A stretch of 64,000 bases of DNA from Candidatus Peregrinibacteria bacterium. GTDB taxonomy: Bacteria > Patescibacteriota > Gracilibacteria > CAIRYL01 > GCA-016699755. The stretch lies in contig CP065009.1 of the NCBI GenBank assembly GCA_016699755.1, positions 84,937 through 148,936 of the forward strand. Reading direction: 5' to 3'. Position numbers and translations under genes: made by a program. The stretch's first letter is position 1. Each line of letters opens with the position of its first letter. Shown here in pieces: positions 3,137 to 64,000 of the stretch. The notes beneath the pieces are model-generated. The model was not told the origin of the DNA, ran no database searches, and saw only the letters and a program-made list of their open reading frames with translations.

Positions 3137-3180
3137 GATGGATACACATTTTCTGTTTACCCTTTCTTTTTTCTCCCTTC

Positions 3181-9722: not shown

Positions 9723-9781
9723 ACGGGGCAAAGTGTGTCATTTTTTTTTGTTTGTCGCAATTTCTGTCACAATAGTTTTTG

Positions 9782-48171: not shown

Positions 48172-48185
48172 TTCTTAAAAACCTT

Positions 48186-49305
48186 ATGGAGAGAGTACTT
48201 GTTATTGCATGCATGCCCCTCTACGCTGGGAAGGGCTCTAGTCTCAGGGCAATGAAGGCAATTGAGGTGCTTTCTCAAAAATATGAAGTTGATGTGGTGT
48301 GTTATGCCACAGGAAAGGAAAACCCCCGTGAGGGGGTTTCTTTTTTTCGAACACCAAAATTTTTTAAACCAAATCTCAGACCTTTTCAGATATCTTTCTT
48401 TCGAATTATTTTGGATTTTTTTGTTCTGATGAGGGCTTTTTCTCTTTTGTGTACTCGTCATTATAGCGTCATACATGCTGAAGATTTTGAGGCGGCATGC
48501 ATTGCTCGTGTTCTCGTGTTCTTTCGTTTGCAAAAAAAAATGGTATACAACCTTCATAATCGTATATCCGATAATCTTGGTGTGAGTTTAAAGAAAGATA
48601 GAGGGATTTTTACATTCCTTCTTCTCCGTATAGAAAAAAGTATTATCCAAAAATCAGATCTCATTGTTTGTAATTGGAAGCGATATCAAGAAGATAATGA
48701 TTTTGCTTTTGGGGAAAAAAATATTATGGTACGACAGTATTTCTCTTCAAGAAAAGGAGCCATTTCTCCCTTCTTATTTTCCAAAGCACTATCTCTTGTA
48801 TTCAGGAAATACACTTGGTTATCAGGGGGTATTTGAGTTCCTTGTCCAAACACAAAATGCCTCTTTCGCTTTGCCACTTGTTATTGTTGGGAAAGCTGAT
48901 GAAGCTCTTCGCAAGAATGTCTCTCATTTGGAGCGAGAAGGGAAGGTTTTTTTTCTCGGAGAAAAAACTATTGAAGAGACAAATATTCTCATAAAAAAAT
49001 CATTTTTTTGTATTCTCCCAAGGCTTACGGTCTGTTCCAGTATGAAAGTTCTTCATTATTTTTCGAATGATAAACCAGTGTTTGCCAAAAATATTCCCTA
49101 TAATAATGAATGTATTGTTCACGAAAAAAATGGAATCCTTTATGATTCTCCTTCCGAACTTCTTGCCTTTTATGAAAAGGCAGTGACGAATAGGTCGTTT
49201 TATAAAAGTCTTTCTGTGGGGGCTGCTATTACCGGAAAAAATATTCGTGATAATTGGCTTCAAAATGATTTTATCCAAGCGTATGGGAATACGATTCAAA
49301 AGTAG
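48186..49305 (+). pseudogene. family-4-type (GT-B) glycosyltransferase split by a +1 frameshift at a poly-A tract
   Basis: The N-terminal half is in the frame of 48186..48836 and the C-terminal half is in the frame of 48664..49305. The frames meet at GGGG-A7 (48711..48721). Removing one A gives ...FAFGEKILWYDSISL... Confidence 0.65.
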
Positions 49306-50395
49306 CAATGAACACCATATACTTCATCTTATTGACAAAGAGGGAGTTGGCGGAGTTGAGATCCTTGTGCAAAATCTTGCAGAGTCTTTTTCTTCCATCA
49401 GGTGTTCATATCTTTTTTTGAGGTCATCAAAAAAAACAACTGAAAATATTTTTCGAAAACATTTTTATAAGTGGAGTATCTCCCCCTTCTTCTTCTTGAT
49501 TTTCTTTTTGAGACGAGAAAATATCCATCTTGTCCATACGCATCATCGAAAAGGATTCTATCTTATGTGTCTTATAAGCCTTTTTCTCAGCTATATTGTG
49601 TTTGTTCATCATGAGCACGGGGATGTTTTGCAAAAACAAAATACTTTCTATCGTTTCTTTTTACTTCTTTTTCAGAAGAGGATCTCTCGAATTATTGCTG
49701 TTTCCACTCCTCTTCAGGAAGAAATACAAAAGATAGTTCCTCATGTACATTGTGATGTTCTTTTAAACCCTCTCTTGTCTCAGAAAGGTAACATTTCTTT
49801 GGATGATCAAATGATACTCAAAGAAATAGAGGGTATTAAAAAGACGACACCGTTTCTTATTGGATATTTTGGAAGGATAGAGTTAGTGAAGCGGCTTGAC
49901 GTTCTTTTGCATGCACTTTCGCTTCTTTCGCTTCCTCGTGATGCTTGGAGGGCTGTTTTTTTGGGAGAAGGAAAGCAAAAAAAATTTCTGCAAAAGCTTT
50001 GCTCTCAAAAGAATCTTTCTAAAAATGTCTCATTTCTTCCTTCTATCTCGTCTCATGCTTGCCAAACAGCATATTCATTTCTTGATGTTTCGGTACTCTG
50101 TTCCGAATTTGAAGGTCTCTCTCTTTTTCTTCTGGAATCTCTGCAAAATGAAATTTCGGTTATCATCTCTGATGTTCCGGCTCCGAATGCTTATATTTCG
50201 CATGAAAAAAATGGTCTTCTTTATCCATTTGGTGATGCGAAAGCACTTTCACTTCTTATCGAAAAACTATTTCATAATTTCGTATTGCGTCACAAAATAG
50301 CAAAATCTGGACGTCTCTTTGCTGAAAAGACATTTCCAAGTCAAGATGAGTACAATGCTCATCTTGAAAAGATATATCTTGAAGTTCTCTCGTGA
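49283..50395 (+). CDS. glycosyltransferase, GT-B fold (family 4-like)
   Basis: HILHLIDKEGVGGVEILVQNL at the N-terminus and the EX7E-type motif SEFEGLSLFLLESLQNEISVIISD. The start is uncertain (49247, 49265 or 49283). Confidence 0.7.
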   Translation: MGIRFKSSNEHHILHLIDKEGVGGVEILVQNLAESFSSIRCSYLFLRSSKKTTENIFRKHFYKWSISPFFFLIFFLRRENIHLVHTHHRKGFYLMCLISLFLSYIVFVHHEHGDVLQKQNTFYRFFLLLFQKRISRIIAVSTPLQEEIQKIVPHVHCDVLLNPLLSQKGNISLDDQMILKEIEGIKKTTPFLIGYFGRIELVKRLDVLLHALSLLSLPRDAWRAVFLGEGKQKKFLQKLCSQKNLSKNVSFLPSISSHACQTAYSFLDVSVLCSEFEGLSLFLLESLQNEISVIISDVPAPNAYISHEKNGLLYPFGDAKALSLLIEKLFHNFVLRHKIAKSGRLFAEKTFPSQDEYNAHLEKIYLEVLS

Positions 50396-51657
50396 AAAAG
50401 AAGATTTTTCAGGAATCGGTGTGGTCATTTTCTTCAAAAGGAGTTGGCATTCTCCTGTTTTTTTTGAACAGCTCTCTTCTTGCTCATCTTCTTGGAAAAG
50501 AAGTTTTTGGACAATGGATAGTACTTTTTTCTCTCTTTTCTCTCTGTCATTTTTTCACACTTTTTGGAGTAAACGATTATCTCAGGAAAGAATTGGTACA
50601 GAGCCACTCAAAAGAATATCGAAAAATCGTCTTCCCTTTTTTTGTTGTTCGAGGGGTAGTTACTCTTTTTTCGGGTATTCTTCTGTTCTTCTTTGTGGAT
50701 GGAACATCTATTTTTTCACCGGTATTCATTAGTATTATTTTGACTTTCCTTATTCCTTTTCTTCTTCTCTACGGAATTCTCGATTTTCTTCATCAAATAT
50801 TTTTCGGGTTGCACCGTATAAAATATTCCTTCTTTTTGAGCTGTATTGAACAGATATCATTTTTCTCTTTCCTTTTTTGTTTTTCTTTAATACAAGAGAT
50901 TACTCTTGAGTCTGTTTTTATATTTCATCTTCTCTCCTTTTTTCTGGCAGTTGTTTTTGGGGCGTTCTTTTTTTTGTATCAGACACGAGCAGAAAAAAAC
51001 ACGCCACTCCTTCTTTTTGATAGGAAGACATATTTTTCCCTCTTTTTTCACAGTTTTCCCTATTTTGTAGTGCAAGCAGGAACCTATTTCTTTTCCTATA
51101 TTGATATTTTGCTTCTTGGGATTGTCGCTTCACCTGTCTATGCCGGAGTGTATGGTATTGCAAAAAATGTTGTTTCGAAAATCCCCCATATCAACACTGC
51201 TCTTTCTCTCTCATTTTCTCCTGTCTTTTCTAATATTGCGAGAAAGGACGCTGGTTTTCAGGAGAAAAAGAATATTCTCCTCCATTATGTTTTTCTCAAT
51301 ATAATCATTCTTGTATGTATCTCTATAGGGATTCTCTTGTTTTCTGATATTTTTGTTCGTCTCATTTGGGGAAATACATACCAAGAGGCATCGTTCTTTT
51401 TGCGATTGCTTATCCCCTATATGATATCTTTTTCCTTGCTGTCGTCATTTGGGGCGATTCTTGACTACAACAATGCCATAAGAAAAAGAGCGATTATTTA
51501 CATTTCTTCTTCTGTGCTCTTTCTCCTTCTCTTTTTTGTGTTAAAGGGAAAATTACACGCCATTCTTATTTCTCTTTCACTCTCTTGTGTTGTGGCAAGC
51601 TTTGCTCATTTTATTCTCTTGTTTCAAAAAATATTCAATAAAGATACACAGAACTGA
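50392..51657 (+). CDS. Wzx-like polysaccharide/oligosaccharide flippase (MOP superfamily)
   Basis: GTG start overlapping the upstream stop (GTGA). About 12 or more TM helices. The N-terminus SVWSFSSKGVGILLFFLNSSLLAHLLGKEVFG is typical of the family. Confidence 0.65.
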   Translation: MKKKIFQESVWSFSSKGVGILLFFLNSSLLAHLLGKEVFGQWIVLFSLFSLCHFFTLFGVNDYLRKELVQSHSKEYRKIVFPFFVVRGVVTLFSGILLFFFVDGTSIFSPVFISIILTFLIPFLLLYGILDFLHQIFFGLHRIKYSFFLSCIEQISFFSFLFCFSLIQEITLESVFIFHLLSFFLAVVFGAFFFLYQTRAEKNTPLLLFDRKTYFSLFFHSFPYFVVQAGTYFFSYIDILLLGIVASPVYAGVYGIAKNVVSKIPHINTALSLSFSPVFSNIARKDAGFQEKKNILLHYVFLNIIILVCISIGILLFSDIFVRLIWGNTYQEASFFLRLLIPYMISFSLLSSFGAILDYNNAIRKRAIIYISSSVLFLLLFFVLKGKLHAILISLSLSCVVASFAHFILLFQKIFNKDTQN

Positions 51658-53470
51658 CACCATCTGGTGAAAGATAGACTTTATTCATTACATTATTTCG
51701 GAAAAATTTTTGGCTCTCTTCTTGAATATGTATGGTATAGAGTGTCTCTATGTTTGCTCCATGAACAGTGACCCACACTCTTTTCTTTTGACGTTTTTTT
51801 TCTTCTAGAATTTTTAAAAATTCTTTATGCGAAGGAATAATAATGGCTCCAGTGCGAAGATCAAAATATTCATTTTTTTTCGGGTTTAACAAGGCAAATT
51901 CTCGCCACATATTTTTCCATCGATAATTTTCATTGAGTATATAATCTGGCTTTAGATTTGTGTAGAACGTTGTATAATCCATGGTATTGATCCAGATGTC
52001 TCCCTCACGATAATTTGCATTTAAAAATTTGAGAATTGTTTTTGAATCAGTTCGTATTTTTTGACTCCAAGTTGATCGAAACGGATTTTGTTCAACGCTG
52101 TCTCCATATTGAATATTGATCTGGTTCCAAAAAAAAGGATGCAGAGAAAAAAGGGCAAGAATAGTGAAGGTAAAAAGCACCATTCTTTGTGGAACATGTT
52201 TCTTGACAAGAATTTCAGAAGTAGTGGAGACAGAGAAAAAAGCGAGAATAACAATGAGCGGTTCGAACAGGAAATAAAGTCGAGGGGCTTTATCAAAGGT
52301 GTTTACAATATCGAAAATCCCACTGCTAATGAGAAACGTCAAAAGAAGATAATCATGGAACTGAGGGGTGTATTTCTGAAATCCTTTTCTTTTTACTATA
52401 AAAAATGTTTGAAAAATAAGCGGAGCAAGAATCCAGAAGGGAATATGGTATCTTTGGTAGAAGTCATAGGCTTCAAAAGTAAGGTTCGAAAAGGAGTTTG
52501 CAGGAATATTAAGGAGAAGCCCTTTTCTTTCGGAGGTTTCTATTTGATATTCTTTTTTCGCCCCTTCTGGAATTTCTTTTTCAAAAAAATAGAGTGGATT
52601 TCCGATGATGTATAATACAAAAAAAGGCGCGAGAACAAGAAGAATCTTTGCAAGGGCACGTTTTTTTCTTTCCTTTGTGTTGTCAAACAAAAATCGGAGT
52701 GTTATTGCGGCGAGAATTCCTCCAAAAAGAATATTTCCAAGCTCACTGTTAAGATTGAGAAGAAAATGAATACCAAAAGAAATGACGAGAAAAATATTCT
52801 TTCGTTTCCACACTCCTTGCCAAAGGCTCCATAGACCAACAAGAAAGAGAAAACTATTTAAAGTATAAAATCTCGCAAATTGTGCATATTCTATGCTGTA
52901 CGGAGAAAATGTTAAAAAGATAAGAACAAAAATGGCGATTTTCTTATCAACCTTTTTTGCAAAAAAATAGGAAATAAAAAGGATTCCAACGCTTAAAAAA
53001 ACATTTGGAAGTCTGAGCATAAGCTCGTTCTCTCCTCCAAAGTAACAAAATAATGCAACGAGATAGTGATAGGGGATTCCTCTCCAGTAATACTCATTTC
53101 CAGAGGGGGAGAGGGGAATGCCATTCTCGAGAATGGATTTTACATATGTTCCTGTGAGAAACTCGTCCCACCAGAGACTCAATTCTCCTAAACGGTAGAA
53201 ACGAATAAGAAAGGCAAGAAGAATGAGCAATATAACAAATATGGTTTCGCCTTTTTTCCATACTTCATTTTGGTGAATATCTTTTTCTTGGGAAAAATAT
53301 TCTCTACATAAAAATATGCAGGCAATAAAAGCTGCAGAGAAAATAGCAAAGAAGTATTCTGGTGTACTTCCTCGTAGCAAAAAAAATGCAACAGGGATGA
53401 TCCCAATAAAAAAAAGTGGAATACTTTGAAGAATTGAAAATATTTTAGAATTCATTTTCAAATGGAACAT
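51635..53470 (-). CDS. GT-C fold glycosyltransferase (ArnT/PMT-like, family 39/83)
   Basis: Polytopic N-terminal half with a first-loop motif (FYRLGELSLWWDEFLTG) and a soluble C-terminal domain. Confidence 0.6.
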   Translation of the reverse strand: MFHLKMNSKIFSILQSIPLFFIGIIPVAFFLLRGSTPEYFFAIFSAAFIACIFLCREYFSQEKDIHQNEVWKKGETIFVILLILLAFLIRFYRLGELSLWWDEFLTGTYVKSILENGIPLSPSGNEYYWRGIPYHYLVALFCYFGGENELMLRLPNVFLSVGILFISYFFAKKVDKKIAIFVLIFLTFSPYSIEYAQFARFYTLNSFLFLVGLWSLWQGVWKRKNIFLVISFGIHFLLNLNSELGNILFGGILAAITLRFLFDNTKERKKRALAKILLVLAPFFVLYIIGNPLYFFEKEIPEGAKKEYQIETSERKGLLLNIPANSFSNLTFEAYDFYQRYHIPFWILAPLIFQTFFIVKRKGFQKYTPQFHDYLLLTFLISSGIFDIVNTFDKAPRLYFLFEPLIVILAFFSVSTTSEILVKKHVPQRMVLFTFTILALFSLHPFFWNQINIQYGDSVEQNPFRSTWSQKIRTDSKTILKFLNANYREGDIWINTMDYTTFYTNLKPDYILNENYRWKNMWREFALLNPKKNEYFDLRTGAIIIPSHKEFLKILEEKKRQKKRVWVTVHGANIETLYTIHIQEESQKFFRNNVMNKVYLSPDGVSSVYLY

Positions 53471-55106
53471 CCTCTTTGCGAAGTGTGATTTTTAGAGAAT
53501 CAATTCGTATTGAGCTTCGATATCCCTCAAGGGATTTTGCTGAAAGACGAAGGAGAAGTTTTTTCCCGTCATTTTTATCGTTCTCATGCTTCTTCCATGC
53601 GAGTTTCACTCTTCCCTTTTTATATGGAGTGAGAATGTAGGAAATATTGCTCATTTTTGCAATATCAAACGGAATAGTGGCGTAGGGGGCGGTCTCAAAA
53701 ATTCCTTCTGGTGTCATGGCAAAACCATTTTCTTCGGAGGAAATAAGGAGGTCATTTTTGGCAATATATATTTCGTTTATGGGTTTTTCGAGAGAGATTT
53801 GTGTTGCCTCAAGAAAGGATATTTTTTTGCTCTCATCGTTCACCAGAATGTTTTGTTCTGAATAGTCATGAGCGGCTTTTGCAGATATTTCTCCAGACAG
53901 TGAGTAGAGGGTAATCGGCTTTGTTATTATATTTTTTGCGACATCATTGTCGCGGTCAGCGATATGTATGCCATTCATTTGAACATATTTGGTATTTAAA
54001 AATAAGTTTCGAATGACTGCATCGCTTCCGTCTCCAATATAGCGAAATTGAATAGTGTACATTGTTGGTTGTTTTTCTTTGGGTGCCTCTATCTTTTGCA
54101 TGTAGCTTTGGATATTGGTCATTCTATCATTTTCAGTGTCTCCATCGTCAGAAAGAATATCATAAAAAATAATGCCATTCTGGTCTGATATTTTTATTTC
54201 ATATATATCCTCTCCTTTGTATATATTTAGATCCTGTTTATCGAAATATATCTCTAAATCACTATCTGTAAGAACACTTATAGTGGCATCTCCTCGAAGG
54301 GAATAGGGGATGCGGGTGACATTTGATTCCAAGATATTTTGTTCTTTTTCGTATCCAACAGGAACTCCCACTTTCATTATTGGTACTTCATTCTTTTGTT
54401 TTTTTGGAGCTAAGTTTTTTTGAAAGTTATACTTTTGAGGCAGAATATAATCTAGCGTAGCAATTTGAGGCACTGCTTTTTCTTTGATGATAGGGTTTCC
54501 AAAATCGTCAATCTTAATAGCTTTTGTCACATTTTTTTTGGGTGGATTCTCCAAAAATTCTTGAACGCTTTTATACTGTTTTCCTGCTTTTCCTGCTTCA
54601 TCATCTTTTGTTTTTTGAAGCAATGTTAGCCCCAATTCTTTATCGAAAATACTTTTCCAATTTCCCCCCAAATACTTCTGAAAATCATTGAGATATTGAT
54701 GGTCAAGAGCGTGGCATGTCCAATCAAACACTGGTTCATTGAGAACAATATCTTGTTGTTCTCGAAGACACGCTTCGAGCACTGGGGTATCAGGATTTTC
54801 AAATTCCGCTTCCACAACAACCGAATTGTAATCATCAATATTTTTCGGTGCATCAAGAGTAATTTCTACTGCATCTTTGGTCATAACATATTTCTCAATC
54901 TCGGCGATGGTTCCATCTTCTCGTGGTTCCAGAGAATATTGCTTCATAAGACCATTTATTTGAACATTTTTTGTATTTATATTGTCTTGGAAGTTTATTT
55001 CGTACGTAATGTTTTGATGGAGGAAAAATGCGAGCGAAAAAACGCCGAAGGCTCCTATAAGGAGTACTATCGTGAAGAAAAAAAAGTGGTTTTTGGTACA
55101 TTGCAT
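53445..55106 (-). CDS. hypothetical N-terminally anchored extracytoplasmic protein
   Basis: 553-aa ORF with one N-terminal TM helix (FFFFTIVLLIGAFGVFSLAFFL). Its 3' end overlaps the GT-C gene start, suggesting co-translation. I recognised no family. Confidence 0.5.
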   Translation of the reverse strand: MQCTKNHFFFFTIVLLIGAFGVFSLAFFLHQNITYEINFQDNINTKNVQINGLMKQYSLEPREDGTIAEIEKYVMTKDAVEITLDAPKNIDDYNSVVVEAEFENPDTPVLEACLREQQDIVLNEPVFDWTCHALDHQYLNDFQKYLGGNWKSIFDKELGLTLLQKTKDDEAGKAGKQYKSVQEFLENPPKKNVTKAIKIDDFGNPIIKEKAVPQIATLDYILPQKYNFQKNLAPKKQKNEVPIMKVGVPVGYEKEQNILESNVTRIPYSLRGDATISVLTDSDLEIYFDKQDLNIYKGEDIYEIKISDQNGIIFYDILSDDGDTENDRMTNIQSYMQKIEAPKEKQPTMYTIQFRYIGDGSDAVIRNLFLNTKYVQMNGIHIADRDNDVAKNIITKPITLYSLSGEISAKAAHDYSEQNILVNDESKKISFLEATQISLEKPINEIYIAKNDLLISSEENGFAMTPEGIFETAPYATIPFDIAKMSNISYILTPYKKGRVKLAWKKHENDKNDGKKLLLRLSAKSLEGYRSSIRIDSLKITLRKEDVPFENEF

Positions 55107-55310
55107 TTGCTCTTTTGAAAAGGAGTAGAATTTTTATCAGTTGTTCTTTTTACCATGTCATTTTCTTTTTGTAAAATTTTGTTTTTAATTTCTATGACAA
55201 AAGTAATTTTTGGCTTTGATGTTGATCTCGGACGTGTAAATCAAAACAAAAACTCTAATTTAGAGCGAGGAGAATCCGAGGGAAAAGGGGAAGAAAAGAA
55301 GGGGAGTAGT

Positions 55311-55341
55311 ATAAGAAAAACACCTCTTGTAGAAGAGGTGT
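55311..55341 (-). terminator. Rho-independent terminator downstream of rplK
   Basis: On the minus strand: ACACCTCTT-CTAC-AAGAGGTGT followed by TTTTCTTAT. It lies about 30 nt after the rplK stop. Confidence 0.55.
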
Positions 55342-55371
55342 TGTATTGTTCAAATGAAAAAATATTTTTCG

Positions 55372-55797
55372 TTACGCTTCTACCTTAATTCCCATTGATC
55401 GAGCGGTTCCGCCAATAATTTTCACAGCGGCATCCATATTGTTGGCATTGAGATCTTTCATTTTCGTGGTGGCAATTTCTTCAAGCTGAGCTCGGGAAAT
55501 GGTTCCAATTTTATCGAGATGAGGCTTTGGACTCCCCGATTGTTTTCCGAGTGCTTTTTTGAGAAGAATTGCTGCAGGAGGGGATTTAACAATAAATGTA
55601 AAACTTCGGTCTTCATAAACCGTAATGACTACCGAAACCACAGTATCACCCATTTCTCGTGTTTTCTCATTGAATTGGGTACAAAAATCTTGAATGGGCA
55701 CTCCTGCCGATCCAAGTGCGGGTCCCACTGGTGGTGCAGGATTCGCTTTTCCTGCTGGAACTTGAAGTTTGACTATTTTTGTGACTTTCTTCGCCAT
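55372..55797 (-). CDS. rplK: 50S ribosomal protein L11
   Basis: [46 protein letters not shown]. Confidence 0.9.
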
Positions 55798-56435
55798 TAT
55801 TGAAAAAAGAGAGGAAAAATGTTCGATTTCATCAGGGCATCATGGTAACTCCTTTGATATTGAAAGGCAAGCACTTTTCTATCGGAACGCGCTACCATAA
55901 AAACCGTATCGGGGAAAGTAATAGTGTCATTGAGGTAGAAATTCGCTTTTCCTACCGTATTTTGTGGTTCGGAGAGGGAAACTTTTGCATTTAAGTTCTT
56001 TGGAAGAGCACCATCAATCTTTGCTCGAACGAGAGAGAAGAGGCGTCCTGCGCTCATAGATTCAGTTGGAATAACGCGACTCACCTGACCTATTTTTTCT
56101 CCATTCCACAAAAATGGAAAGGTAACAACAAGAAAACCGTCTCGTTCTGGCTGAACCGAAGCATGCTGAAAGAGGGCAGAATGACGATTCCCCATCTCAA
56201 GAGAAGCACCCTTTGATTCAAGCTGAGCAACGGAGAAATATTGCTTTGGATCCACTCCTTTAACAACAGGCGTTTCACCATCCTTATTTTCCTCAGAAAC
56301 GGCATATTGACTTTCTTCTTGCGGAAGAAGAGCCACCTCCGCTCGATCAAGAGTTTCTGGGCGAACCACAATTTCGAGGGAAACAACGGCGAGTGCTACC
56401 CCTAAAACACCGGAAGCAACGAGGAGAGTCCGCAT
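55797..56435 (-). CDS. hypothetical N-terminally anchored protein inserted between nusG and rplK
   Basis: Start placed at the in-frame ATG at 56435 ([23 protein letters not shown]), because the track start overlaps nusG. The stop TAA overlaps the rplK ATG by 1 nt. Confidence 0.5.
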
Positions 56436-56445
56436 GAAAAAAGTG

Positions 56446-57033
56446 TTATTTCTTTTGAATCTGAGAAAAAGAGAGCTCCATGGGGGTTTCGCGTTCAAAG
56501 AGTGTAACAAGGACGCGAAGCTTTCCTTTTTCGGGATATACCTCGCTGACAACACCCTCATGAGTGGCGAATGGTCCATCGATAATTTTCACGATATCGC
56601 CTTTTCCAAAGTCTGCTTTGTACTTTGGTTCATTAACTCCCATTCGTTTTCGTACAAGTCCAAATTCCTCAGGAGTAACGGGAACTGGAATATTTCCCGA
56701 TCCAACAAAACCGGTGACGTTTGGTGTATTCCGCACAACATACCAACTCTCATCTGTAACAACCATGCTGACGAGCACGTATCCTGGGAAAATACATTTT
56801 TTGCGTTGGACAGGTTTTCCTTTTCGCAAAATAACTTCGGTTTCTTTTGGAACAACAATTTCAAAGATTTTTCCTTGCATATTCATCGACTCAATTCTCT
56901 GCTCTAGCGCATTTTTTACGGAATCTTCATATCCAGAGTAGGTATGAATTACATACCAATTCCGTCCTGCTTTGGAATCTTGACGACCAGCAGATTCTTC
57001 TGTTGCTGTTTTGATAATGGTATCTTCTGACAT
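56446..57033 (-). CDS. nusG: transcription termination/antitermination factor NusG
   Basis: NWYVIHTYSGYEDSVKNAL (NGN domain) and GDIVKIIDGPFATHEGVVSEV (KOW domain). Confidence 0.9.
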   Translation of the reverse strand: MSEDTIIKTATEESAGRQDSKAGRNWYVIHTYSGYEDSVKNALEQRIESMNMQGKIFEIVVPKETEVILRKGKPVQRKKCIFPGYVLVSMVVTDESWYVVRNTPNVTGFVGSGNIPVPVTPEEFGLVRKRMGVNEPKYKADFGKGDIVKIIDGPFATHEGVVSEVYPEKGKLRVLVTLFERETPMELSFSQIQKK

Positions 57034-57038
57034 ACGTA

Positions 57039-57215
57039 CTAAAGAGAGAGAATAACTTTGCTGAGAACCAAGTCCACAAGACCAATGATGATGGCGCTTG
57101 ATCCAACAAAGATAGCGGCAACAATGCTAATGCGCATGGCATGATTTTTGGTAGGCCACTGAACCTGTCGAAGCTCATGAATAGCCTCCTGAAGGTATTT
57201 TTTAACGGAATTCAC
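57039..57215 (-). CDS. secE: preprotein translocase subunit SecE (58 aa, GTG start)
   Basis: Not in the ORF track. My translation is VNSVKKYLQEAIHELRQVQWPTKNHAMRISIVAAIFVGSSAIIIGLVDLVLSKVILSL*, directly upstream of nusG. Confidence 0.65.
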   Translation of the reverse strand: MNSVKKYLQEAIHELRQVQWPTKNHAMRISIVAAIFVGSSAIIIGLVDLVLSKVILSL

Positions 57216-57289
57216 GAAAAAATAAGACAGGAAAGAAAAAGTATCACTTTTCGATTTTGAAGTATTTTTTTCAAATCTGCAAGAAAGTA

Positions 57290-58285
57290 TTATACAAAAA
57301 GCTCGGAAATCTGTACGGCATTGAGTGCCGCACCTTTTAAGAGTTGATCTCCGCAGAGAAAAAAGTCGATTCCGTTTTCCCCAAAAATAAGACTCTGTCG
57401 AATGCGCCCTACTTCTACATTTTCCTTTTGAGAAGCGGTGAGTGGCATAGGATAGAGAAATTCTTCTGGTGCATCTCGCACCTCTACTCCGGGCGACATC
57501 TTGAGAATTTCCCTTGCCATTTCTGGGGAAATCGGTTTTTCTGTTTCAATGGTTACCGATTCCGCATGCGCCCGAAAAGTAGGAATGCGAACTGCGGTAC
57601 ATGAAATTGGAAGATTTGGCGCTCCGAAAATTTTTCTCGTTTCCCAAGTCACTTTCATTTCTTCTCGGGTGTAGCCATTTTCTTGAAATGAATCGATATG
57701 AGGAATGAGGTTAAAAGGGATTGGATGAACAAATTCTTTATTCAAAACAGGTTCTCCATTTAAGAAGTGTTGTGTTTCGGTGCGGAGTTCTTCCATGGCA
57801 GGCGCTCCGGCTCCGCTTGTTGCTTGATAAGTAGAAACAATGACTTTTTTACAAGTGAATTCTCTGTGGAGCGGATAGAGGGCAACATTTAAAATGAGTG
57901 TACTACAGTTTGGATTTGCAATAAGTTTGTGCCCTTGTGCCGCTTTGGGATTTACTTCTGGACAAATGAGCGGTACATCGTTTTCTAAGCGAAAAGCAGA
58001 GGAGTTATCAATAACAATTGGTTTTCCCTTCGCGATTTCTCTTGCATATTCTTTGGCAAAACTGCCAGAAACTGCCATAAGCACAAAATCTAAATTCTTT
58101 GTTTTTTCCACGGAAAATTCTTCAACAGTTTTTTCTCCAAATGGAGTTTGAAACACCTTTCCGGCGCTTCTTGCACTTGCAAACAGATGAAGCTCCGAAA
58201 GTGGAAAATTGCGCTTGTGGAGAACGGAAATCATCTCTTGTCCTACAGCACCGGTGCATCCCACAATTCCCACAGAAGACGACAT
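57290..58285 (-). CDS. asd: aspartate-semialdehyde dehydrogenase
   Basis: In-frame ATG at 58285. VGIVGCTGAVGQEM (NAD(P)-binding), IANPNCSTL (active-site Cys) and STYQATSGAG. Confidence 0.9.
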   Translation of the reverse strand: MSSSVGIVGCTGAVGQEMISVLHKRNFPLSELHLFASARSAGKVFQTPFGEKTVEEFSVEKTKNLDFVLMAVSGSFAKEYAREIAKGKPIVIDNSSAFRLENDVPLICPEVNPKAAQGHKLIANPNCSTLILNVALYPLHREFTCKKVIVSTYQATSGAGAPAMEELRTETQHFLNGEPVLNKEFVHPIPFNLIPHIDSFQENGYTREEMKVTWETRKIFGAPNLPISCTAVRIPTFRAHAESVTIETEKPISPEMAREILKMSPGVEVRDAPEEFLYPMPLTASQKENVEVGRIRQSLIFGENGIDFFLCGDQLLKGAALNAVQISELFV

Positions 58286-58690
58286 ACTTGAATTGGAAAA
58301 AAGCGGAAAGGAGAATACAGAAAACATTTGAGAAAGGGAACTCCTGTGAAAGTAAAATGAGAACATGGTTTGGGTTTGCGACTTACCATGTTCACAATAA
58401 TTTCAATTTCAGCATGTCGTGAAAGTTGCTTTGAAATTACTTGCAATGACTCTTTTTTTGGATGGGATTTTGCACAGAGTCCAATGCAATTCAATTCCAG
58501 CAAAAAAAATATATATTAAACAATAAAAATTGTTGACAGAAAGAAATTAGTAATGATAAAAAATGCACTATTTTTGAGCAATTCGTTCTTTTACATCATT
58601 GTTGTTCTGGTGAGTATTCTTCTGTATTTCATTGCTAAAGATTGCAAGAAATCTATTTTTGATAGCGTTTCTTGTTCTTCGGTATATTGA

Positions 58691-59143
58691 ATGCAGATAT
58701 CCTGCTCGCCAGAAAGGTGGGCTTCTGAAAAAAAGAGGAATTTTGTTATGTTAGCTATATACCTGTGTTTGTCCTACAGTCTCCTATATGTGGGAGTGCT
58801 GATTTTTACCCATAGTGGGTTTTTTGCTTGGACACTATTTGTCCTAATCTTGCTCTTTCTCCTTAACGTTATTATTCGGGGACCTTTTTCCCCGTCACCA
58901 CATCCTCTTTTGAAGCTCCAACTCATTATTGGGGTTTTTGGATGGACTATTCTGGACATTGTTTTGATCAGAGGGATTTTTATGTGGGAGGGGGAGGAAA
59001 TAAATTATCTCCCCCTTAGAATTTTCATCTCGGTCTACTTGATCCCATTTTTTTTCTTTAAGTTTGTGGTTTGCTTTGTGATGATCTGTGATAAATGGGC
59101 TTCTTCTTGGCAAGTGTTACCAATAAGAAGAAGAGCAGGATAA
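58691..59143 (+). CDS. hypothetical membrane protein (about 4 TM helices)
   Basis: 150-aa ORF with four hydrophobic helices. No family recognised and the start is uncertain. Confidence 0.4.
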   Translation: MQISCSPERWASEKKRNFVMLAIYLCLSYSLLYVGVLIFTHSGFFAWTLFVLILLFLLNVIIRGPFSPSPHPLLKLQLIIGVFGWTILDIVLIRGIFMWEGEEINYLPLRIFISVYLIPFFFFKFVVCFVMICDKWASSWQVLPIRRRAG

Positions 59144-59149
59144 GACCTA

Positions 59150-59179
59150 CTGGAATCTCCTTGTATGAGGAGATTCCAG
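59150..59179 (+). terminator. 11-bp stem hairpin between convergent genes
   Basis: ctggaatctcc-ttgtatga-ggagattccag followed by tgcttttctt. It lies between the 59143 stop and the secA stop at 59196. Confidence 0.5.
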
Positions 59180-59195
59180 TGCTTTTCTTGGTGCC

Positions 59196-61868
59196 TTAAT
59201 CTTCTTTTCCACAACACTTCTTGTACTTTTTTCCGCTTCCGCACGGACACTGGTCATTTCTCCCTGCTTCGGGTTGTTTTTGTGGTGTGGTAGATTCTGC
59301 TCGAACACGTCCAGAGGATATTTTTGAAACGGCGGAAGGGGGAATATTATTTGCTGAAACTCGGTGTGGACCCGCGCGAGAAACCGTATCTTCTGCGGTG
59401 AGTGCTGTTGTAATTTCTTCCGCGTTAGTTTGAATATTTTTCGGTTTTTCTTCGGGAATTTCTTGTCCAAATCGAATTTCAATATTCATTTGGAACATAG
59501 TGCGTATAACCGAATTCTGAACTTTCTGAAGTAAGGTTTTAAACTTTTCGTAGCCAATTGCTTGGTACTCGTGGAGTGGATTTTTTTGAGCATATCCCAC
59601 AAGTGCTACTTGTTCTCGTAAGTGAGTCATGTCATCGATATGCTCCATCCAAAATTGGTCAATAGTCCGCAGAGTAACCATACGCTCGGCTTGTCGAAAA
59701 TATTTTGCATCCGAAAGAGCATCTTCCCGTTTTTGGTATTCGGTGGTGAGAAAGGTTCGTGCGAGTTCTTCTATTCTCTCTTCTGTTTCGGCGGTTTCGT
59801 AATCTACTATGGTTGGGGCACCGTGTTGATGAAGTGCAGAAATACCCGCGGCAAATTCTTTGAGCTCATACTGATGTGCTTCGCGTCCATGAATATGGAG
59901 ATTTCTCAGGAGTTCCACTTCGCCCTCAATCCACTTGAGAATCTCTTCGTGAATATCTCCTTGGTTTAGTATTTTTCGTCGTCGTCGGTAGATAATTTCT
60001 CGTTGGCGGTTCATAACATCGTCGTATTGTACGACATGTTTTCGAACATCAAAGTGATGTCCTTCTACTTTCTTTTGTGCCGATTCAATCGATCCGCTAA
60101 TAAGTCGGCTTTCAATGGGCATATCATCTGGAATTTTGAGCGTTTCCATCATTTTTTGAAGACGATCAGAACCAAAAAGACGCATGAGCGAATCTTCTAG
60201 TGATAAGAAAAATTGTGTTTCTCCCTGATCTCCTTGTCGTCCCGCACGTCCGCGGAGCTGATTATCGATGCGACGTGATTCGTGTCGTTCGGAACCGATA
60301 ATGCAAAGCCCACCAAGTTCTGCCACACCTTCTCCAAGTTTAATATCTGTTCCGCGTCCTGCCATATTTGTGGCGATAGTGACTGCTCCAAATTGTCCGG
60401 CATTTGCCACGATTTCTGCTTCTCGAGCGTGATTTTTTGCATTGAGCACTTCGTGCGGAATGCCTTTTTGTTGCAAGAGAAAAGAGAGTGCTTCGGATCG
60501 TTCGATAGAAATAGTTCCGATGAGAACTGGTTGCCCAGAAGCATGTTTTTCTGCTGTTTTTTGGGCAATGGCAATAAATTTTCCGCGCTCATTTTTGTAG
60601 ACAACATCCGCTAAATCCTTTCGCGTTATGGTTCGATTTGTGGGAATAACAGCAACTTCTAATCCGTAAATTTTCAAAAACTCTTCCTCTTCTGTTTTCG
60701 CCGTTCCCGTCATTCCTGAGAGTCTGTGGTACAGTCGAAAGTAGTTCTGAAACGTAATCGTCGCCAATGTTTTGCTTTCGCGACGAATTTCTACCTTTTC
60801 TTTCGCTTCAAGTGCTTGGTGCAAGCCATCCGAATATCTGCGTCCAGGCATGAGACGTCCCGTGAATTCATCCACAATAATGACTTCTCCGTCTTTAACG
60901 ACATAGTCTTTATCTCGGTGATAGACTGCTCGCGCTCGCAAAGCTTGTTCAATGTGATGCACTTCCGCAAAACCAGCATCGCTGTAGACATTTTCTACTC
61001 CCATGAGCTGTTCCATTTTTTTGATACCATCTTCTGTGAGTACCGCTGTTTTTCGTTTTTCGTCCAAGTTGTAGTGTGTGTCTTTTTCGAGGTGTCGCAC
61101 GAGTGTGTCATATTTTTGATATTTTGAAGTCGATTCTTCTGCTGGAGCCGAAATAATGAGTGGTGTACGTGCTTCATCCACAAGGATAGAGTCGACCTCA
61201 TCCACAATGGCATAATGGAGTTCGCGCTGCACAATGTCTCGTGGAGTTGTTGCCATATTGTCTCGAAGGTAATCGAAACCAAATTCATTATTTGTTCCGT
61301 AGGTAATATCCGAAGCGTAGGCCTCTTTTCGTCCAGAGCGGTCGACATCATTTGTAATGACCCCCACAGAAAGTCCAAGATATCGGTAGAGGTGTCCCAT
61401 CCACTGGGCATCACGTTTTGCAAGGTAATCATTCACGGTAATGACATGTACGCCTTTTCCGGCGAGTGCTTCGAGATATGCAGGAAGCGTGCAAACCAGT
61501 GTTTTTCCTTCTCCTGTTTTCATTTCAGAAATACGCCTGCTGTGGAGGACAGCGCCTCCTACAATTTGAACATCATAGGGAATCATATTCCAAGTTTCTT
61601 CCTTTCCATTTACCTCAAAAGTACTTCCCGAAAGCCGACGACAAGCATTTTTAACAACAGCAAAAGCTTCAGGAAGAAGAGCCTCCGTTGTTTCTCCATT
61701 TTGAATTCGCTCTCGAAATTCGTCTGTTTTTGCCCGAAGCTCTTCATCGGAAAGAGCTTGAAGTTGTTCTTCAATCTTGTTGACCTCTTCTACCTTTTTC
61801 CACGCGGCTTTTACGGCTTTTTCAGAGGGGTCTCCCATGACTTTTTGGAGGAATGATGTGACGCTCAT
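59196..61868 (-). CDS. secA: preprotein translocase ATPase SecA
   Basis: In-frame ATG at 61868 (MSVTSFLQKVMGDPSEK). MKTGEGKTL (Walker A), DEVDSILVDEARTPLIIS, and a C-terminal zinc motif (CPCGSGKKYKKCCGK). Confidence 0.9.
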   Translation of the reverse strand: MSVTSFLQKVMGDPSEKAVKAAWKKVEEVNKIEEQLQALSDEELRAKTDEFRERIQNGETTEALLPEAFAVVKNACRRLSGSTFEVNGKEETWNMIPYDVQIVGGAVLHSRRISEMKTGEGKTLVCTLPAYLEALAGKGVHVITVNDYLAKRDAQWMGHLYRYLGLSVGVITNDVDRSGRKEAYASDITYGTNNEFGFDYLRDNMATTPRDIVQRELHYAIVDEVDSILVDEARTPLIISAPAEESTSKYQKYDTLVRHLEKDTHYNLDEKRKTAVLTEDGIKKMEQLMGVENVYSDAGFAEVHHIEQALRARAVYHRDKDYVVKDGEVIIVDEFTGRLMPGRRYSDGLHQALEAKEKVEIRRESKTLATITFQNYFRLYHRLSGMTGTAKTEEEEFLKIYGLEVAVIPTNRTITRKDLADVVYKNERGKFIAIAQKTAEKHASGQPVLIGTISIERSEALSFLLQQKGIPHEVLNAKNHAREAEIVANAGQFGAVTIATNMAGRGTDIKLGEGVAELGGLCIIGSERHESRRIDNQLRGRAGRQGDQGETQFFLSLEDSLMRLFGSDRLQKMMETLKIPDDMPIESRLISGSIESAQKKVEGHHFDVRKHVVQYDDVMNRQREIIYRRRRKILNQGDIHEEILKWIEGEVELLRNLHIHGREAHQYELKEFAAGISALHQHGAPTIVDYETAETEERIEELARTFLTTEYQKREDALSDAKYFRQAERMVTLRTIDQFWMEHIDDMTHLREQVALVGYAQKNPLHEYQAIGYEKFKTLLQKVQNSVIRTMFQMNIEIRFGQEIPEEKPKNIQTNAEEITTALTAEDTVSRAGPHRVSANNIPPSAVSKISSGRVRAESTTPQKQPEAGRNDQCPCGSGKKYKKCCGKED

Positions 61869-61995
61869 TTTGTTATTGGGTGAGAATATTCCGACCCAAT
61901 ATATCAAAAATATGAAGAACTGTCTCCTGAAAAAAATATAAAACAAGGGATGAGAGTGAGCCCATCCCTCTACAATATCTTAAGGGAAGAAGAAC

Positions 61996-64000
61996 TTATT
62001 TTTTAAACCACTGAAGTTGCCAGAATGACTCATTGCAAGTGTCATCTTTGCATCCACATTTCCACTCATTTGTACGCCACTGACACGTAAAGGCAGCGAC
62101 ATAATTCTTTTCTTTTAAGTCACCGTTTTGAAATGTCTTCTTTCCCTCACCAACACACCAATCTCCTGAATCGTCCTCTACGTTACAGTTAAAAGTAAAC
62201 TCATTCCAAGAACTCTTTTCTTCCGAATACATATAGCCCTTTTTGTAGACATACGTATTCTTATTTTCATTTCCTGTTTCAAAAGTAGCGGTATCTTCAT
62301 TGCAGGTTACCTGAAGAAGAAGAGGTTTTATACTGGAGAATATATTATATGCGGCACCATAATCTTGTGGAACTTCATCAGAATTGCGGAGCTCAGAGCA
62401 CTCTCTTGATGAGGAGCTCTCACATGTCATTTCCGCCGTTCCGTGCAATTGCGGATCAGTGTTTGATGCCGCAGGAACATCGTGTTTAATTTGGAGTTTT
62501 CCTCCAACTTTACAATAGCTGAGGTAAGTAGTGTATGCGCCTCCGGTTGCAAATGTTCCACTGAAGGCTTCTTTTCGTTCACATTGTCCTTCGGCAATGG
62601 AATTAAAATTAATATTCTGTTTGAGTGTTACTGAGGGAGGAGTTTGTCCTGATCCAGCAACACGAGCAGTAGAAATTTGAACATCACTAAGGTCACAATC
62701 GCAATAGCTTATTTCATGTTTCCATTGGCTGAGGGCACTTCCGGTAAAATCAATAGTTTTCAGTTCACTATTCCCAGAAGAACAGGTTTTTGGAGGACGA
62801 GGGGGAGGAGGAGGTATTGTATTATCTGTGACGATAATCGTTGCGACTGCATCTGTTTGTCCAGTCTTTTTTACGGTGAGTGTTGCTGTTCCGATGGCAG
62901 TTGGTGCGGTAAGAGTGCATGTTGTGGATCCGTCTGAACACTGATTTTTGGTGATACCTGTTGTTCCGGCATTCAGAGTAAAGGTGTGTTCACTGGCACT
63001 ATTGGAAACAGCAATATTCGTGACGGATGCTCCAACGGCAATGGATTGAGTTGTAGGAGAAACAGCAAGGGTGGCTCCACCTCCTCCACCAGATACGGCG
63101 GCGAGAATTTTTTCTGCATTCGCAAAGCCACATCCCGATTTTACATCTTTTCCGGGTGCATCAATGTCTTCTGCATTGTCACACATAATTTGTAAGATTT
63201 GCGCAGGAGTGAGCGAAGGGTCTTTCGACTTCATGAGTGCGGCAATGCCGGCAATATGTGGGCTTGCCATAGACGTTCCAATAAGCCTTGCATATTGATT
63301 TGATAACCATGTACTTCCAATGCCATTTTCTCGGCAGCTTTCAGTGTTATTTCCTACGCATTCTCCTGCTCCGGGGGCGGCAATATCGACCCAATTTCCA
63401 TAACTTGAGAAGGGAGCAATTTTTTTATAGAAATCTGTTGCCCCTACGGTGATAATTCCATTACAACTTGCTGGTGTTTCTGTTGGATTTCCTTCCTGTC
63501 CACTATTTCCAGAGGCAACCACTATGGTAACTCCTGCGTTAACAGCAGTATTAATTTGGTTCTGCCAATTATTACTGCATACGCCATCGCCGCCGAGACT
63601 CATATTGATGACATTTGCTCCATTTTGAGTGGCATAGCTTATCGCCTCAAAAATATCGTTGTCGTATGCTCCTCCGTCACCACCAAAGACCTTAAGAGGC
63701 ATTATTTTTGCGTCTGGAGCAATGCCCACAACACCATTGTTATCTTTTTTGGCGGCGATTGTACCCGCAACATGTGTTCCATGTCCCTCTGTGTCACTTG
63801 GATCTGTATCGTTGTTTCCTGAAAAATCATATCCGGTAACAAGTTGTCCTTGAAATTCAGGATGATTAAGGTCAATTCCTGTGTCAATAACTGCGACGAC
63901 TACTCCTTCTCCAGTAACTCCAGTCGCCCATACTTTATCGGCATTGACTCCCGCATTATTTTGATTATTAAAGTAGTGCCAGAGGTTGTCTTTATTTTCA
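61996..64000 (-). CDS. subtilisin-like (S8) protease, 5' end beyond the window
   Basis: The frame stays open to position 64000. My translation gives VVVAVIDTGID (Asp), GHGTHVAGT (His) and GTSMASPHIAG (Ser). An Ig-like domain, the shared module and a Cys-rich C-terminal domain follow. Confidence 0.85.
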   Translation of the reverse strand, partial: ENKDNLWHYFNNQNNAGVNADKVWATGVTGEGVVVAVIDTGIDLNHPEFQGQLVTGYDFSGNNDTDPSDTEGHGTHVAGTIAAKKDNNGVVGIAPDAKIMPLKVFGGDGGAYDNDIFEAISYATQNGANVINMSLGGDGVCSNNWQNQINTAVNAGVTIVVASGNSGQEGNPTETPASCNGIITVGATDFYKKIAPFSSYGNWVDIAAPGAGECVGNNTESCRENGIGSTWLSNQYARLIGTSMASPHIAGIAALMKSKDPSLTPAQILQIMCDNAEDIDAPGKDVKSGCGFANAEKILAAVSGGGGGATLAVSPTTQSIAVGASVTNIAVSNSASEHTFTLNAGTTGITKNQCSDGSTTCTLTAPTAIGTATLTVKKTGQTDAVATIIVTDNTIPPPPPRPPKTCSSGNSELKTIDFTGSALSQWKHEISYCDCDLSDVQISTARVAGSGQTPPSVTLKQNINFNSIAEGQCERKEAFSGTFATGGAYTTYLSYCKVGGKLQIKHDVPAASNTDPQLHGTAEMTCESSSSRECSELRNSDEVPQDYGAAYNIFSSIKPLLLQVTCNEDTATFETGNENKNTYVYKKGYMYSEEKSSWNEFTFNCNVEDDSGDWCVGEGKKTFQNGDLKEKNYVAAFTCQWRTNEWKCGCKDDTCNESFWQLQWFKK
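62414..62797 (-). repeat. third copy of the 384-nt module from the giant protein (inverted orientation)
   Basis: The reverse complement matches 15015..15391 with 2 mismatches and 14442..14825 with 4 mismatches, checked line by line. Identity stops abruptly on both sides. Confidence 0.95.

Follow-up and report, generated by a model that had tools for sequence, protein, structure and literature searches.

Two secreted proteins and their shared module

The window, i.e., the whole stretch of 64,000 nucleotides analysed, carries the genes of two secreted proteins that have one nearly identical DNA segment in common. The first is a giant surface protein of 1905 amino acids (positions 10897-16614, plus strand), with Pfam matches to PF01522 (E 3e-25) and PKD_4 (E 9e-6). 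From the N-terminus, it is composed of a signal peptide, a PKD domain, a Big-like domain, a Cys-rich region, FG-GAP-like repeats, two successive units each made of a CGSANGG mini-domain and the module considered here, and a C-terminal polysaccharide deacetylase. The two units form a tandem duplication with a period of 573 nt (14264-15391, plus strand; repeat family D2, spacing 573), in whose translation the mini-domain, an LPPVDPPK linker and the module follow one another, and they display 4 differences in 555 nt. Further tandem arrays are present in the window according to the same repeat search.

The second protein is an S8 subtilase (61996-64000, minus strand; PF00082, E 5e-66). The end of the window falls inside its gene, and the visible part covers residues 183-849 of the 849-residue protein P0018, including the catalytic motifs VIDTG, HGTHV and GTSMASP. 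The catalytic domain is followed by a Big-like domain (62821-63081), a poly-proline linker with codons for PPPPPR (62797-62814), the module, and a C-terminal Cys-rich domain (61999-62397; ...WKCGCKDDTCNESFWQLQWF) that is kept in subtilase orthologues, all on the minus strand. The preliminary description of this DNA presented the subtilase as unrelated to the giant protein, which proves incorrect: its Big-like domain is common to residues 287-372 of the latter (38% amino-acid identity, E 5e-12) and its Cys-rich domain matches residues 365-531 (26%, E 3e-9). Relatives of the subtilase carry many different C-terminal Pfam domains. To note, a second S8 protein encoded in the window carries FG-GAP repeats.

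Searching the window by tblastn returned three copies of the module only, all in the same codon phase. Copies A (14442-14825, plus strand) and B (15015-15391, plus strand) belong to the first and second 573-nt units of the giant protein, while copy C (62414-62797, minus strand) lies in frame within the subtilase gene and encodes 128 residues, PPKTCSS...AEMTCESS. The repeat search reports A and C as an inverted pair of 384 nt (380/384 identical), and B and C (62421-62797) as an inverted pair of 377 nt (375/377 identical). Mismatches with copy C therefore number 2 for B and 4 for A, in agreement with the initial description and with the three-way alignment. This alignment contains exactly five variable columns within the module: copy A is distinguished by T at column 113 (C in the other two), by C at column 289 and by C at column 334 (T in the other two in both cases), copy C by A at column 263 (T in the others), and copy B by A at column 384 (G in the others). 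Three variable sites are thus private to copy A and one each to copies B and C; in copy C the five columns, in ascending order, fall at window positions 62728, 62578, 62552, 62507 and 62457. The mosaic of variants shared with B and with A that had been read from these sites is void, because among three sequences every variable site is private to one copy. Four of the five are non-synonymous, which is the neutral expectation for so few sites and was rejected as a sign of selection; the five bases could also include polishing errors, as reads can be mis-assigned among paralogous copies in repeats.

The borders of identity are sharp, and the flanks cannot be aligned among the copies, in agreement with the initial claim. 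At the 5' side, the first identical letter is the T of the CGT or GAT codon that precedes CCT CCA AAA (P-P-K); the linker codons of the subtilase share the microhomology CCTCC(A) with the donor sequence GAT CCT CCA. At the 3' side, identity between C and B ends after ATGACATGTG, from where copy B continues into GGGSVVS and the deacetylase part. Identity between C and A ends after ...GAGAGCTC (E-S-S), and these two copies share 8 nt past the end point of B.

A rare all-beta domain

An AF2 model restricted to this segment displays a 128-residue all-beta fold with 8 strands (pLDDT 92.1, pTM 0.85). Judging from this model, the module is one complete domain that is predicted to fold autonomously. 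It belongs to a very rare family, with 15 representatives among 1.84 billion proteins, and homologues in other organisms are 22-66% identical in amino acids. The residues His27, Cys72, Cys95, His105 and His118 are invariant in the family and are all kept in copies A, B and C. In every close relative (P0004, P0005, P0009 and P0179) the module is preceded by a CGSxNGG mini-domain; copy C in the subtilase is the only copy without it.

The family is undescribed. A Pfam search with the module gave no match at E<=0.1, and a PDB profile search no match at E<=1. Structural analogues were sought in the PDB with Foldseek and rejected, since the hits are weak beta-barrel or lectin look-alikes (best E 0.13, TM <=0.38). 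The related-locus search found no relatives of the module in genome contigs, none of the JGI metagenome contigs matched when scanned for exact 44-mers, and the literature search returned nothing specific on this module or on surface-protein shuffling in CPR bacteria. With its confident all-beta fold, three invariant histidines and conserved cysteine pair, and as it has no relative in Pfam or the PDB, the module may be a new domain with a binding function or a metal site.

A module-free orthologue of the subtilase

Protein P0019 (737 residues, 74.5% amino-acid identity) is the positional orthologue of the subtilase. The S8-SecA-Asd neighbourhood is common to both, the synteny anchors in the window being SecA (59196-61946, minus strand) and aspartate-semialdehyde dehydrogenase (Asd; 57290-58366, minus strand); PheS is encoded upstream of P0019 in L001. 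P0019 has the architecture of the window subtilase, S8, Big-like, poly-Pro and Cys-rich C-domain, but without the module, and has no counterpart of residues 404-532 of P0002. Its linker reads ...TVTDDD-PPPPPPPP-GGGKN-CSELTSNDEVP, to be compared with ...VTDNTI-PPPPPR-[PPK...MTCESS]-SSRE-CSELRNSDEVP in the window. This shared architecture minus the module points to an in-frame insertion into the poly-Pro linker in the lineage of the window. The more distant subtilases P0020-P0022 do not contain the module either.

Copies A, B and C are 99% identical at the nucleotide level, as against 71% for the subtilase and its orthologue (29% diverged), whose third codon positions are only 49% identical. Paralogous module copies of the related lineage, from sister samples of one study, are 75-81% alike. 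The copies thus cluster by lineage: 97-99% identity within the window, 75-81% in the related lineage and 60-66% between lineages. Since the paralogous copies of the related lineage have reached only 75-81%, the copies do not appear to be in a long-standing equilibrium.

A probable recent domain insertion

The best explanation, to which we give a probability of roughly three in four, is the recent intragenomic copying of one complete extracellular domain from the giant protein into the linker of the subtilase. The 384-nt stretch encoding this beta-domain would have been copied from an internal unit of the 1905-residue protein (CGSANGG mini-domain, Pro linker, module) into the poly-proline interdomain linker of the secreted subtilase, 47.6 kb away and on the other strand. 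The insertion would have occurred in frame, leaving both adjoining subtilase domains intact. The founding event was probably an illegitimate or microhomology-mediated recombination, or a template switch, because the junctions are without transposon hallmarks, their sole feature being a microhomology of Pro codons (CCTCCA). It would be recent: divergence among the copies amounts to 0.5-1%, against 29% between the surrounding gene and its orthologue. The insertion is older than the split from strain X, a strain seen in independent metagenome runs (X1-X3) that is 0.3% diverged from the window.

The likely donor, judged from sequence comparison, is a unit of the A type from the interior of the giant protein. 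That the module follows CGSxNGG in all close relatives, except in the subtilase copy, designates the giant protein as the source, and the GAGAGCTC that copy C shares after MTC with A, and not with B, designates the A type. The SNPs conflict with the latter choice, as they place copy C nearer to B while its 3' end is A-like; the assignment therefore needs later changes in A, or conversion. Following the insertion, copies A, B and C, along with a probable further pair of diverged copies located elsewhere, may have become substrates for RecA-type homologous recombination, and gene conversion, its non-crossover outcome, may keep reshuffling the few variant sites. These later steps are less certain than the insertion itself.

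Gene conversion and the alternatives

The case for conversion comes from strain X. In its three main copies, columns 289 and 334 are C/C, against T/T in window copies B and C, as read from unphased contig depths. At column 334, the C unitig reaches 3.4x the flank depth and T is found on two contigs of diverged copies only; at column 289, C alone is seen. The runs indicate 3 near-identical and 2 diverged module copies, and the diverged ones share exact tracts of at least 84 nt with the main ones. A second context of the Big-like domain (236-nt segment 62828-63063 in the window) also appears in the runs. This evidence relies on k=31 de Bruijn contigs, which can pop SNP bubbles, and on depth ratios. 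RuvC is encoded in the window (9779-10252). The concerted strain difference at two sites favours a continuing gene conversion among the copies, which is plausible but not proven.

The same data may be read as the sign of an old insertion, in which the 99% identity would be upheld purely by continual conversion of dispersed copies (concerted evolution), with nothing recent about it. The concerted difference at columns 289 and 334, the exact tracts shared by diverged and main copies, and the clustering of copies by lineage would all fit such a scheme. It is nonetheless unlikely: the only orthologue available (75% amino-acid identity) is devoid of the module, which makes the insertion younger than that split; the paralogous copies of the relative were free to diverge to 75-81%, so that copies of this family are not, as a rule, strongly homogenised; and the neighbouring A/B tandem duplication, with its 4 differences in 555 nt, is equally young.

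It is very improbable that the subtilase possessed the module ancestrally and that the lineage of the orthologue then lost it by deletion. A single close orthologue is available, and a deletion between Pro-rich microhomologies would be easy. However, the distant subtilases P0020 and P0021, which possess the same C-terminal Cys-rich domain, are also without the module, and copy C is without the CGSxNGG partner present everywhere else. Furthermore, an ancestral module would hardly be 99% identical at synonymous sites when third positions in the rest of the gene are at 49%, unless it had been overwritten by conversion.

An assembly or polishing artefact, either a chimera mis-joined at a repeat or a near-identity created by consensus polishing, had to be considered for a metagenome-derived genome with 384-nt repeats that exceed the length of short reads. 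The junctions of copy C are however present, at single-copy depth, in independent runs of the slightly different strain X. The 3' junction is found in X1-X3 (contig 61500-62443, depth ~10), and the 5' junction in X1 (a 90-nt unitig, 62768-62857, depth 7.7), though it is missing from the contigs of X2 and X3; the junctions of the giant protein are all present. The depth of the module unitig, 2.5-4.3x that of its flanks, fits three or more real copies. Besides, the reading frame is kept across both junctions, the subtilase runs on into the C-terminal domain expected from its orthologue, and the contig is 1.56 Mb long, all of which makes an artefact highly improbable.

Equally little credit can be given to a mobile or templated-diversification element (transposon or MITE, intein or intron, phage cassette, or the template/variable repeat pair of a DGR), even though the module is multi-copy, sharply bordered and inverted, and CPR genomes often carry DGRs. 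The in-frame translation of the module gives a conserved protein domain, with homologues at 22-66% amino-acid identity in other organisms. A transposon or MITE was rejected, as the module displays no terminal inverted repeats (best match 13/40) and no target duplication (longest shared flank word 3 nt), and all three copies are in-frame coding sequence; a phage or plasmid origin was rejected as well, tblastn giving no match in the phage and plasmid searches. As for a DGR, the mismatches over the three copies (T/C, T/A, C/T, C/T and G/A) involve adenine in only 2/5 cases, in different copies, 384 nt exceeds the usual variable repeats, and the module is not at the C-terminus. No match to the reverse transcriptase family was found in the Pfam-scanned ORFs around both loci (1286-21770 and 44953-64000).

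Comparison with known systems

In Helicobacter pylori, RecA-dependent intragenomic recombination of paralogous surface-protein genes (babA/babB/babC, and sabA/sabB/hopQ) gives rise to chimeric genes and transfers binding regions among them (PMC3960876). As in these adhesins, the recombination considered here would involve surface-protein genes at separate loci. Conversely, the H. pylori genes are paralogous over their whole length and exchange is guided by long homologous 5' and 3' regions, whereas the homology is here limited to one 384-nt domain in genes otherwise non-homologous at that point, so that a founding non-homologous insertion is required. The organism also differs, being here a small-genome uncultured bacterium and not a pathogen under immune selection.

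The repeats of Gram-positive wall-anchored proteins (e.g., Rib/alpha-C of group B streptococci, G5-E of SasG/Aap, Mub of lactobacilli) are near-identical at the DNA level, and are expanded and homogenised by recombination. The A/B tandem pair resembles them, as whole folded domains are encoded in near-identical DNA repeats. These repeats are mainly tandem within one gene, however, while here the unit, minus CGSANGG, would have jumped to the gene of a different enzyme, 47.6 kb away and inverted. The recipient resembles the secreted subtilases that accrete domains (C-terminal PKD, Big, P-domain, FG-GAP, lectin), in which variable binding modules come after the S8 catalytic domain. Contrary to the ancient architectures from which subtilase shuffling is usually deduced, donor and recipient are at 99% nucleotide identity and a module-free positional orthologue is available, so the event can be dated and its junctions read.

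Neisseria pilE/pilS and Borrelia vlsE rely on arrays of promoterless silent cassettes that donate to a single expression site. Like these, the present case would involve a segmental, non-reciprocal transfer into an expressed surface-protein gene, but there is no cassette array: all three copies lie in long, complete ORFs with signal peptides, and exchange would yield almost no diversity because the copies are nearly identical. The preliminary description had put forward a recent domain transfer or ongoing conversion between two surface proteins, in the form of a cassette-like exchange of an exposed module. The transfer is supported by the module-free orthologue and by the coincidence of the segment with one domain, and conversion stands as plausible. 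Cassette-like exchange, in the sense of programmed variation, finds no support, as all copies are in full-length ORFs and neither silent cassettes nor a recombinase are associated with them.

Possible inversion and biological meaning

A more speculative and rather doubtful possibility is that the inverted, in-frame, 99%-identical copies serve as a switch operated by homologous recombination. If a crossover took place within the module, the intervening 47.6 kb would be inverted and the downstream parts of both genes swapped, still in frame. One product would join the N-terminal part of the giant protein and the module to the Cys-rich C-domain of the subtilase; the other would join S8, Big and module to the deacetylase, possibly with the CGSANGG-module unit in between. 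Two isomers would then coexist in the population, with catalytic and targeting parts re-paired, and the conversion suggested by comparing the strains would be what this process yields when no crossover results. Such an inversion creates no new junction k-mers, and is hence invisible to the contig data used; a search for long-read runs containing the locus returned none.

The recent insertion of the domain into the subtilase linker is a clean but not unprecedented case of bacterial domain shuffling. Whereas shuffling is otherwise mostly deduced from old architectures, one can read here the donor, the recipient, the unoccupied site in the orthologue and the two junctions, and the case illustrates how a few bases of microhomology may suffice to place a whole folded domain in a proline linker. 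The protease would thereby have gained a putative ligand-binding or targeting module that the deacetylase-bearing giant protein displays twice. The organism is CPR-like and has a small genome, and bacteria of this kind are considered to lead a host-attached life; giving a secreted protease a new target through the module of a giant wall-modifying protein may bear on attachment or feeding.

The module and its host proteins

The 128-aa module (PPKTCSS...AEMTCESS) is found by tblastn at three sites only in the window, with equal codon phase in all. By repeat search, copies A (14442-14825, plus strand) and C (62414-62797, minus strand) form an inverted repeat pair of 384 nt at 99% identity, while copy B (15015-15391, plus) pairs with C over 377 nt (62421-62797, minus), again at 99%. 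The three-way alignment exhibits five variable columns. The near-identity of C with the other copies reported in the preliminary description is borne out, as two columns (263, 384) separate C from B and four (113, 263, 289, 334) separate it from A. So are the sharp borders: identity starts one base 5' of CCT CCA AAA (P-P-K) and stops after ...ATGACATGTG against B, while against A it runs eight bases further, to GAGAGCTC; the flanks beyond are unalignable. Of the five changes, four alter the amino acid, which is what recent mutations free of selection should give.

Copies A and B belong to a giant secreted protein of 1905 aa (10897-16614, plus; ORF translation and Pfam). From the N- to the C-terminus, it possesses PKD, Big-like, Cys-rich and FG-GAP-like repeat domains, two 191-aa units and a polysaccharide deacetylase (PF01522, E 3e-25). 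Each unit assembles a CGSANGG mini-domain, an LPPVDPPK linker and the module. Copy C belongs to an S8 subtilase (61996 to 64000, minus; PF00082, E 5e-66), of which the window holds the 3' 667 codons; the full-length protein P0018 (849 aa) is encoded on a 1,560,578-bp contig. Contrary to what had been stated, the two proteins are not unrelated: they also share a Big-like domain (38% aa identity, E 5e-12) and a Cys-rich "WKCGC" domain (26%, E 3e-9). The module is 97-98% identical between them at the amino-acid level, as compared to 26-38% for these other common domains.

The Cys-rich domain, ending in ...WKCGC.D..C....W.LQ.F, is located at 61999-62397 (minus), the subtilase C-terminus, and at 11990-12490 (plus), residues 365-531 of the giant protein. 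The orthologues P0019-P0021 of the subtilase have kept this domain, which is undescribed and without a Pfam match.

Independent sequencing runs

Both loci are present in the Logan contigs of three activated-sludge runs (X1-X3). Their strain, strain X, shows ~12 differences from the window over 3680 flank positions (0.3%); the runs thus represent more than the source assembly itself. A chimeric assembly is very unlikely given the junctions recovered. The 3' junction of C lies inside long contigs in all three runs (depth ~10), the 5' junction occurs in X1 alone, on a unitig of 90 nt (62768-62857, depth 7.7), and the giant-protein junctions are all present, as loose ends.

Module unitigs reach 2.5-4.3 times the flank depth, and three further contigs carry a diverged module (1159 nt, depth 11.4; 465 nt, 9.3; 177 nt, 18), preceded by CGSANGG-like sequence and sharing exact tracts with the main copies, such as 62521-62604. 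These depths and contigs indicate that strain X has about three copies that are near-identical and two that have diverged. The latter, matching window positions 62467-62550 and 62693-62797 on contigs of 1159, 465, 177 and 160 nt, are each at single-copy depth; about 350 nt after one of them stands another CGSANGG start (joint 15339 to 14260). The two diverged copies probably belong to a further surface protein with two units, encoded at another genomic site. Database searches of 485-3334-aa proteins returned no further module-bearing protein from the window's own genome.

A 236-nt piece of the subtilase Big-like domain (62828-63063) also forms a separate unitig in X1-X3. Below 62828 it runs into different sequence (reverse complement GAGTGGTGGTAGCGATTCTGGTGATGACGA, roughly SGGSDSGDD), on contigs of up to 3985 nt at single-copy depth. 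This segment therefore appears to recur in a second gene at ~99% identity, as another shared module.

Insertion of the module into the subtilase

The closest subtilase among 5.8 billion proteins is P0019 (737 aa), the positional orthologue: the gene order S8-SecA-Asd is common to its locus and the window (SecA, 59196-61946; Asd, 57290-58366). PheS lies upstream of the P0019 gene in loci L001 and L002; the window stops inside the subtilase gene. P0019 stems from a distinct species, since it is 74.5% identical to the window subtilase (49% at third codon positions) and the SecA proteins are 90% identical. It displays the same S8, Big-like, poly-Pro and Cys-rich C-domain architecture without the module. 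Its linker reads ...TVTDDD PPPPPPPP GGGKN CSELTSNDEVP..., against ...VTDNTI PPPPPR [PPKTCSS...AEMTCESS] SSRE CSELRNSDEVP... in the window. The more distant P0020 and P0021, with the same C-domain, also lack it. Judging from these comparisons, the module is an insertion and not an ancestral presence in the subtilase; the recent transfer between two surface proteins proposed earlier is thus well supported, as an intragenomic domain insertion.

An exhaustive phmmer search of 1.84 billion representatives yields 15 matches to the module. The close ones (61-73% aa identity) are P0004, P0005, P0009 and the short fragments P0006 and P0012; P0179 (2809 aa) harbors two copies, DUF11 repeats and an LIQTG-type C-terminal sorting signal. 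In all of these proteins whose sequence next to the module survives, the module precedes or follows a CGSxNGG mini-domain via a Pro linker, the very unit present twice in the giant protein. Named relatives of the CGSxNGG domains are Paceibacteria-type; like the 1.56-Mb contig size and the presence of a sortase, this is consistent with a CPR bacterium. This partner is missing from the subtilase copy only, and the post-module GAGAGCTC is common to C and A (the internal unit), not B. The subtilase is therefore the recipient, and the likely donor an A-type unit in the giant protein or else an array very like it.

In a relative's locus (L004, 6545-14499), S8 subtilase genes (1055 and 704 aa) border the P0005 gene on either side, and P0005 has a Big-like domain very similar to the one in the syntenic subtilase orthologue. 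In that lineage, therefore, module-bearing genes habitually lie next to subtilases and have parts in common with them. The related genome with P0004 (L003; ENA ERZ1714332 contig_498, 1.50 Mb) has genes split into many short ORFs (e.g., SAICAR synthase, TPP enzyme, Complex1_51K), as is typical of a long-read assembly left unpolished; the gene calls of this genome are thus not reliable.

The 5' junction of C falls within Pro codons on both sides (donor GAT CCT CCA AAA; recipient CCT CGT CCT CCA AAA), and the P0019 linker begins GAT CCT CCA. The founding event would most likely be a microhomology-mediated illegitimate recombination or a template switch. The module has no terminal inverted repeats (best 13/40), no target duplication is seen at C (the flanks share no word longer than 3 nt), and searches for relatives in phages and plasmids returned none. 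A diversity-generating retroelement was rejected, the mismatches among the copies having no adenine-specific pattern, and a programmed cassette system, should the term cassette-like exchange be so read, is not supported.

The window contains several very young intragenic repeats: the 573-nt A/B pair in the giant-protein gene, 7 x 147 nt (46991-48172; 96-100%) in the terminal part of another S8 protease, which has FG-GAP repeats, 2 x 141 nt (20263-20544; 96%) in a protein with a sortase domain, and 2 x 108 nt (100%; 3411-3626) inside ORF 3052-6315, which has a DUF2339 membrane-protein match. Local duplication is hence active in its repeat-bearing genes, several of which encode surface proteins.

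Possible gene conversion among the copies

The earlier case for conversion drew on a SNP "mosaic". This argument is void because, in a comparison of three sequences, each site that varies must set a single copy apart (A 3, B 1, C 1). What makes conversion plausible is strain X. At column 334, its unitig with cytosine has a depth of 32.8, against 9.6 for the flanks, which amounts to all three main copies, and T occurs on two diverged-copy contigs only; at column 289 only cytosine is seen (41.2/41.2). Window copies B and C have T at both columns, which outgroup residues F and V in the module alignment indicate to be ancestral. Two copies changed alike at two sites between strains 0.3% apart imply at least two conversion events, in either lineage. 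Alternatively, popped bubbles in the contigs or a mis-polished window assembly could account for the difference. Ongoing conversion is likely but unproven. A long-standing equilibrium among the copies is disfavored: in a related lineage, represented by a pair of sister samples from a single study, paralogous copies are only 75-81% identical at the nucleotide level.

A new domain family

The module corresponds to a complete domain, and its family is new and undescribed. The alignment of 18 sequences reveals six invariant positions (H27, P53, C72, C95, H105, H118) and four nearly invariant ones (G19, W25, G80, G119), to which CPR-type copies add four cysteines (C5, C33, C35, C125). AlphaFold2 run on this alignment predicts eight β-strands (pLDDT 92.1, pTM 0.85). 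Neither Pfam nor a profile search of the PDB gives a match, and Foldseek returns no PDB analogue (best E 0.13, TM ≤ 0.38). Distant members (22-33% aa identity) are small single-domain lipoprotein-like proteins or tandem pairs within ~300-aa proteins of GC-rich bacteria. The three invariant histidines suggest that the module may be a putative binding or metal-site domain.

Implications for surface-protein evolution

Overall, the preliminary observation is confirmed and its interpretation partly supported. Since C is inverted relative to A and B, keeps their reading frame and matches at 99% over 384 nt, a crossover between inverted copies would invert 47.6 kb and swap the C-terminal parts of both proteins in frame. 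Such an inversion makes no new junction k-mers, so contigs are blind to either isomer; no long-read run holding the locus was found. The kinds of phenomenon involved are known: domain shuffling, and ectopic conversion between genes for surface proteins, of which the H. pylori bab/sab genes are a case (PMC3960876). It constitutes an unusually clean example of domain shuffling, and the module represents a new domain family.
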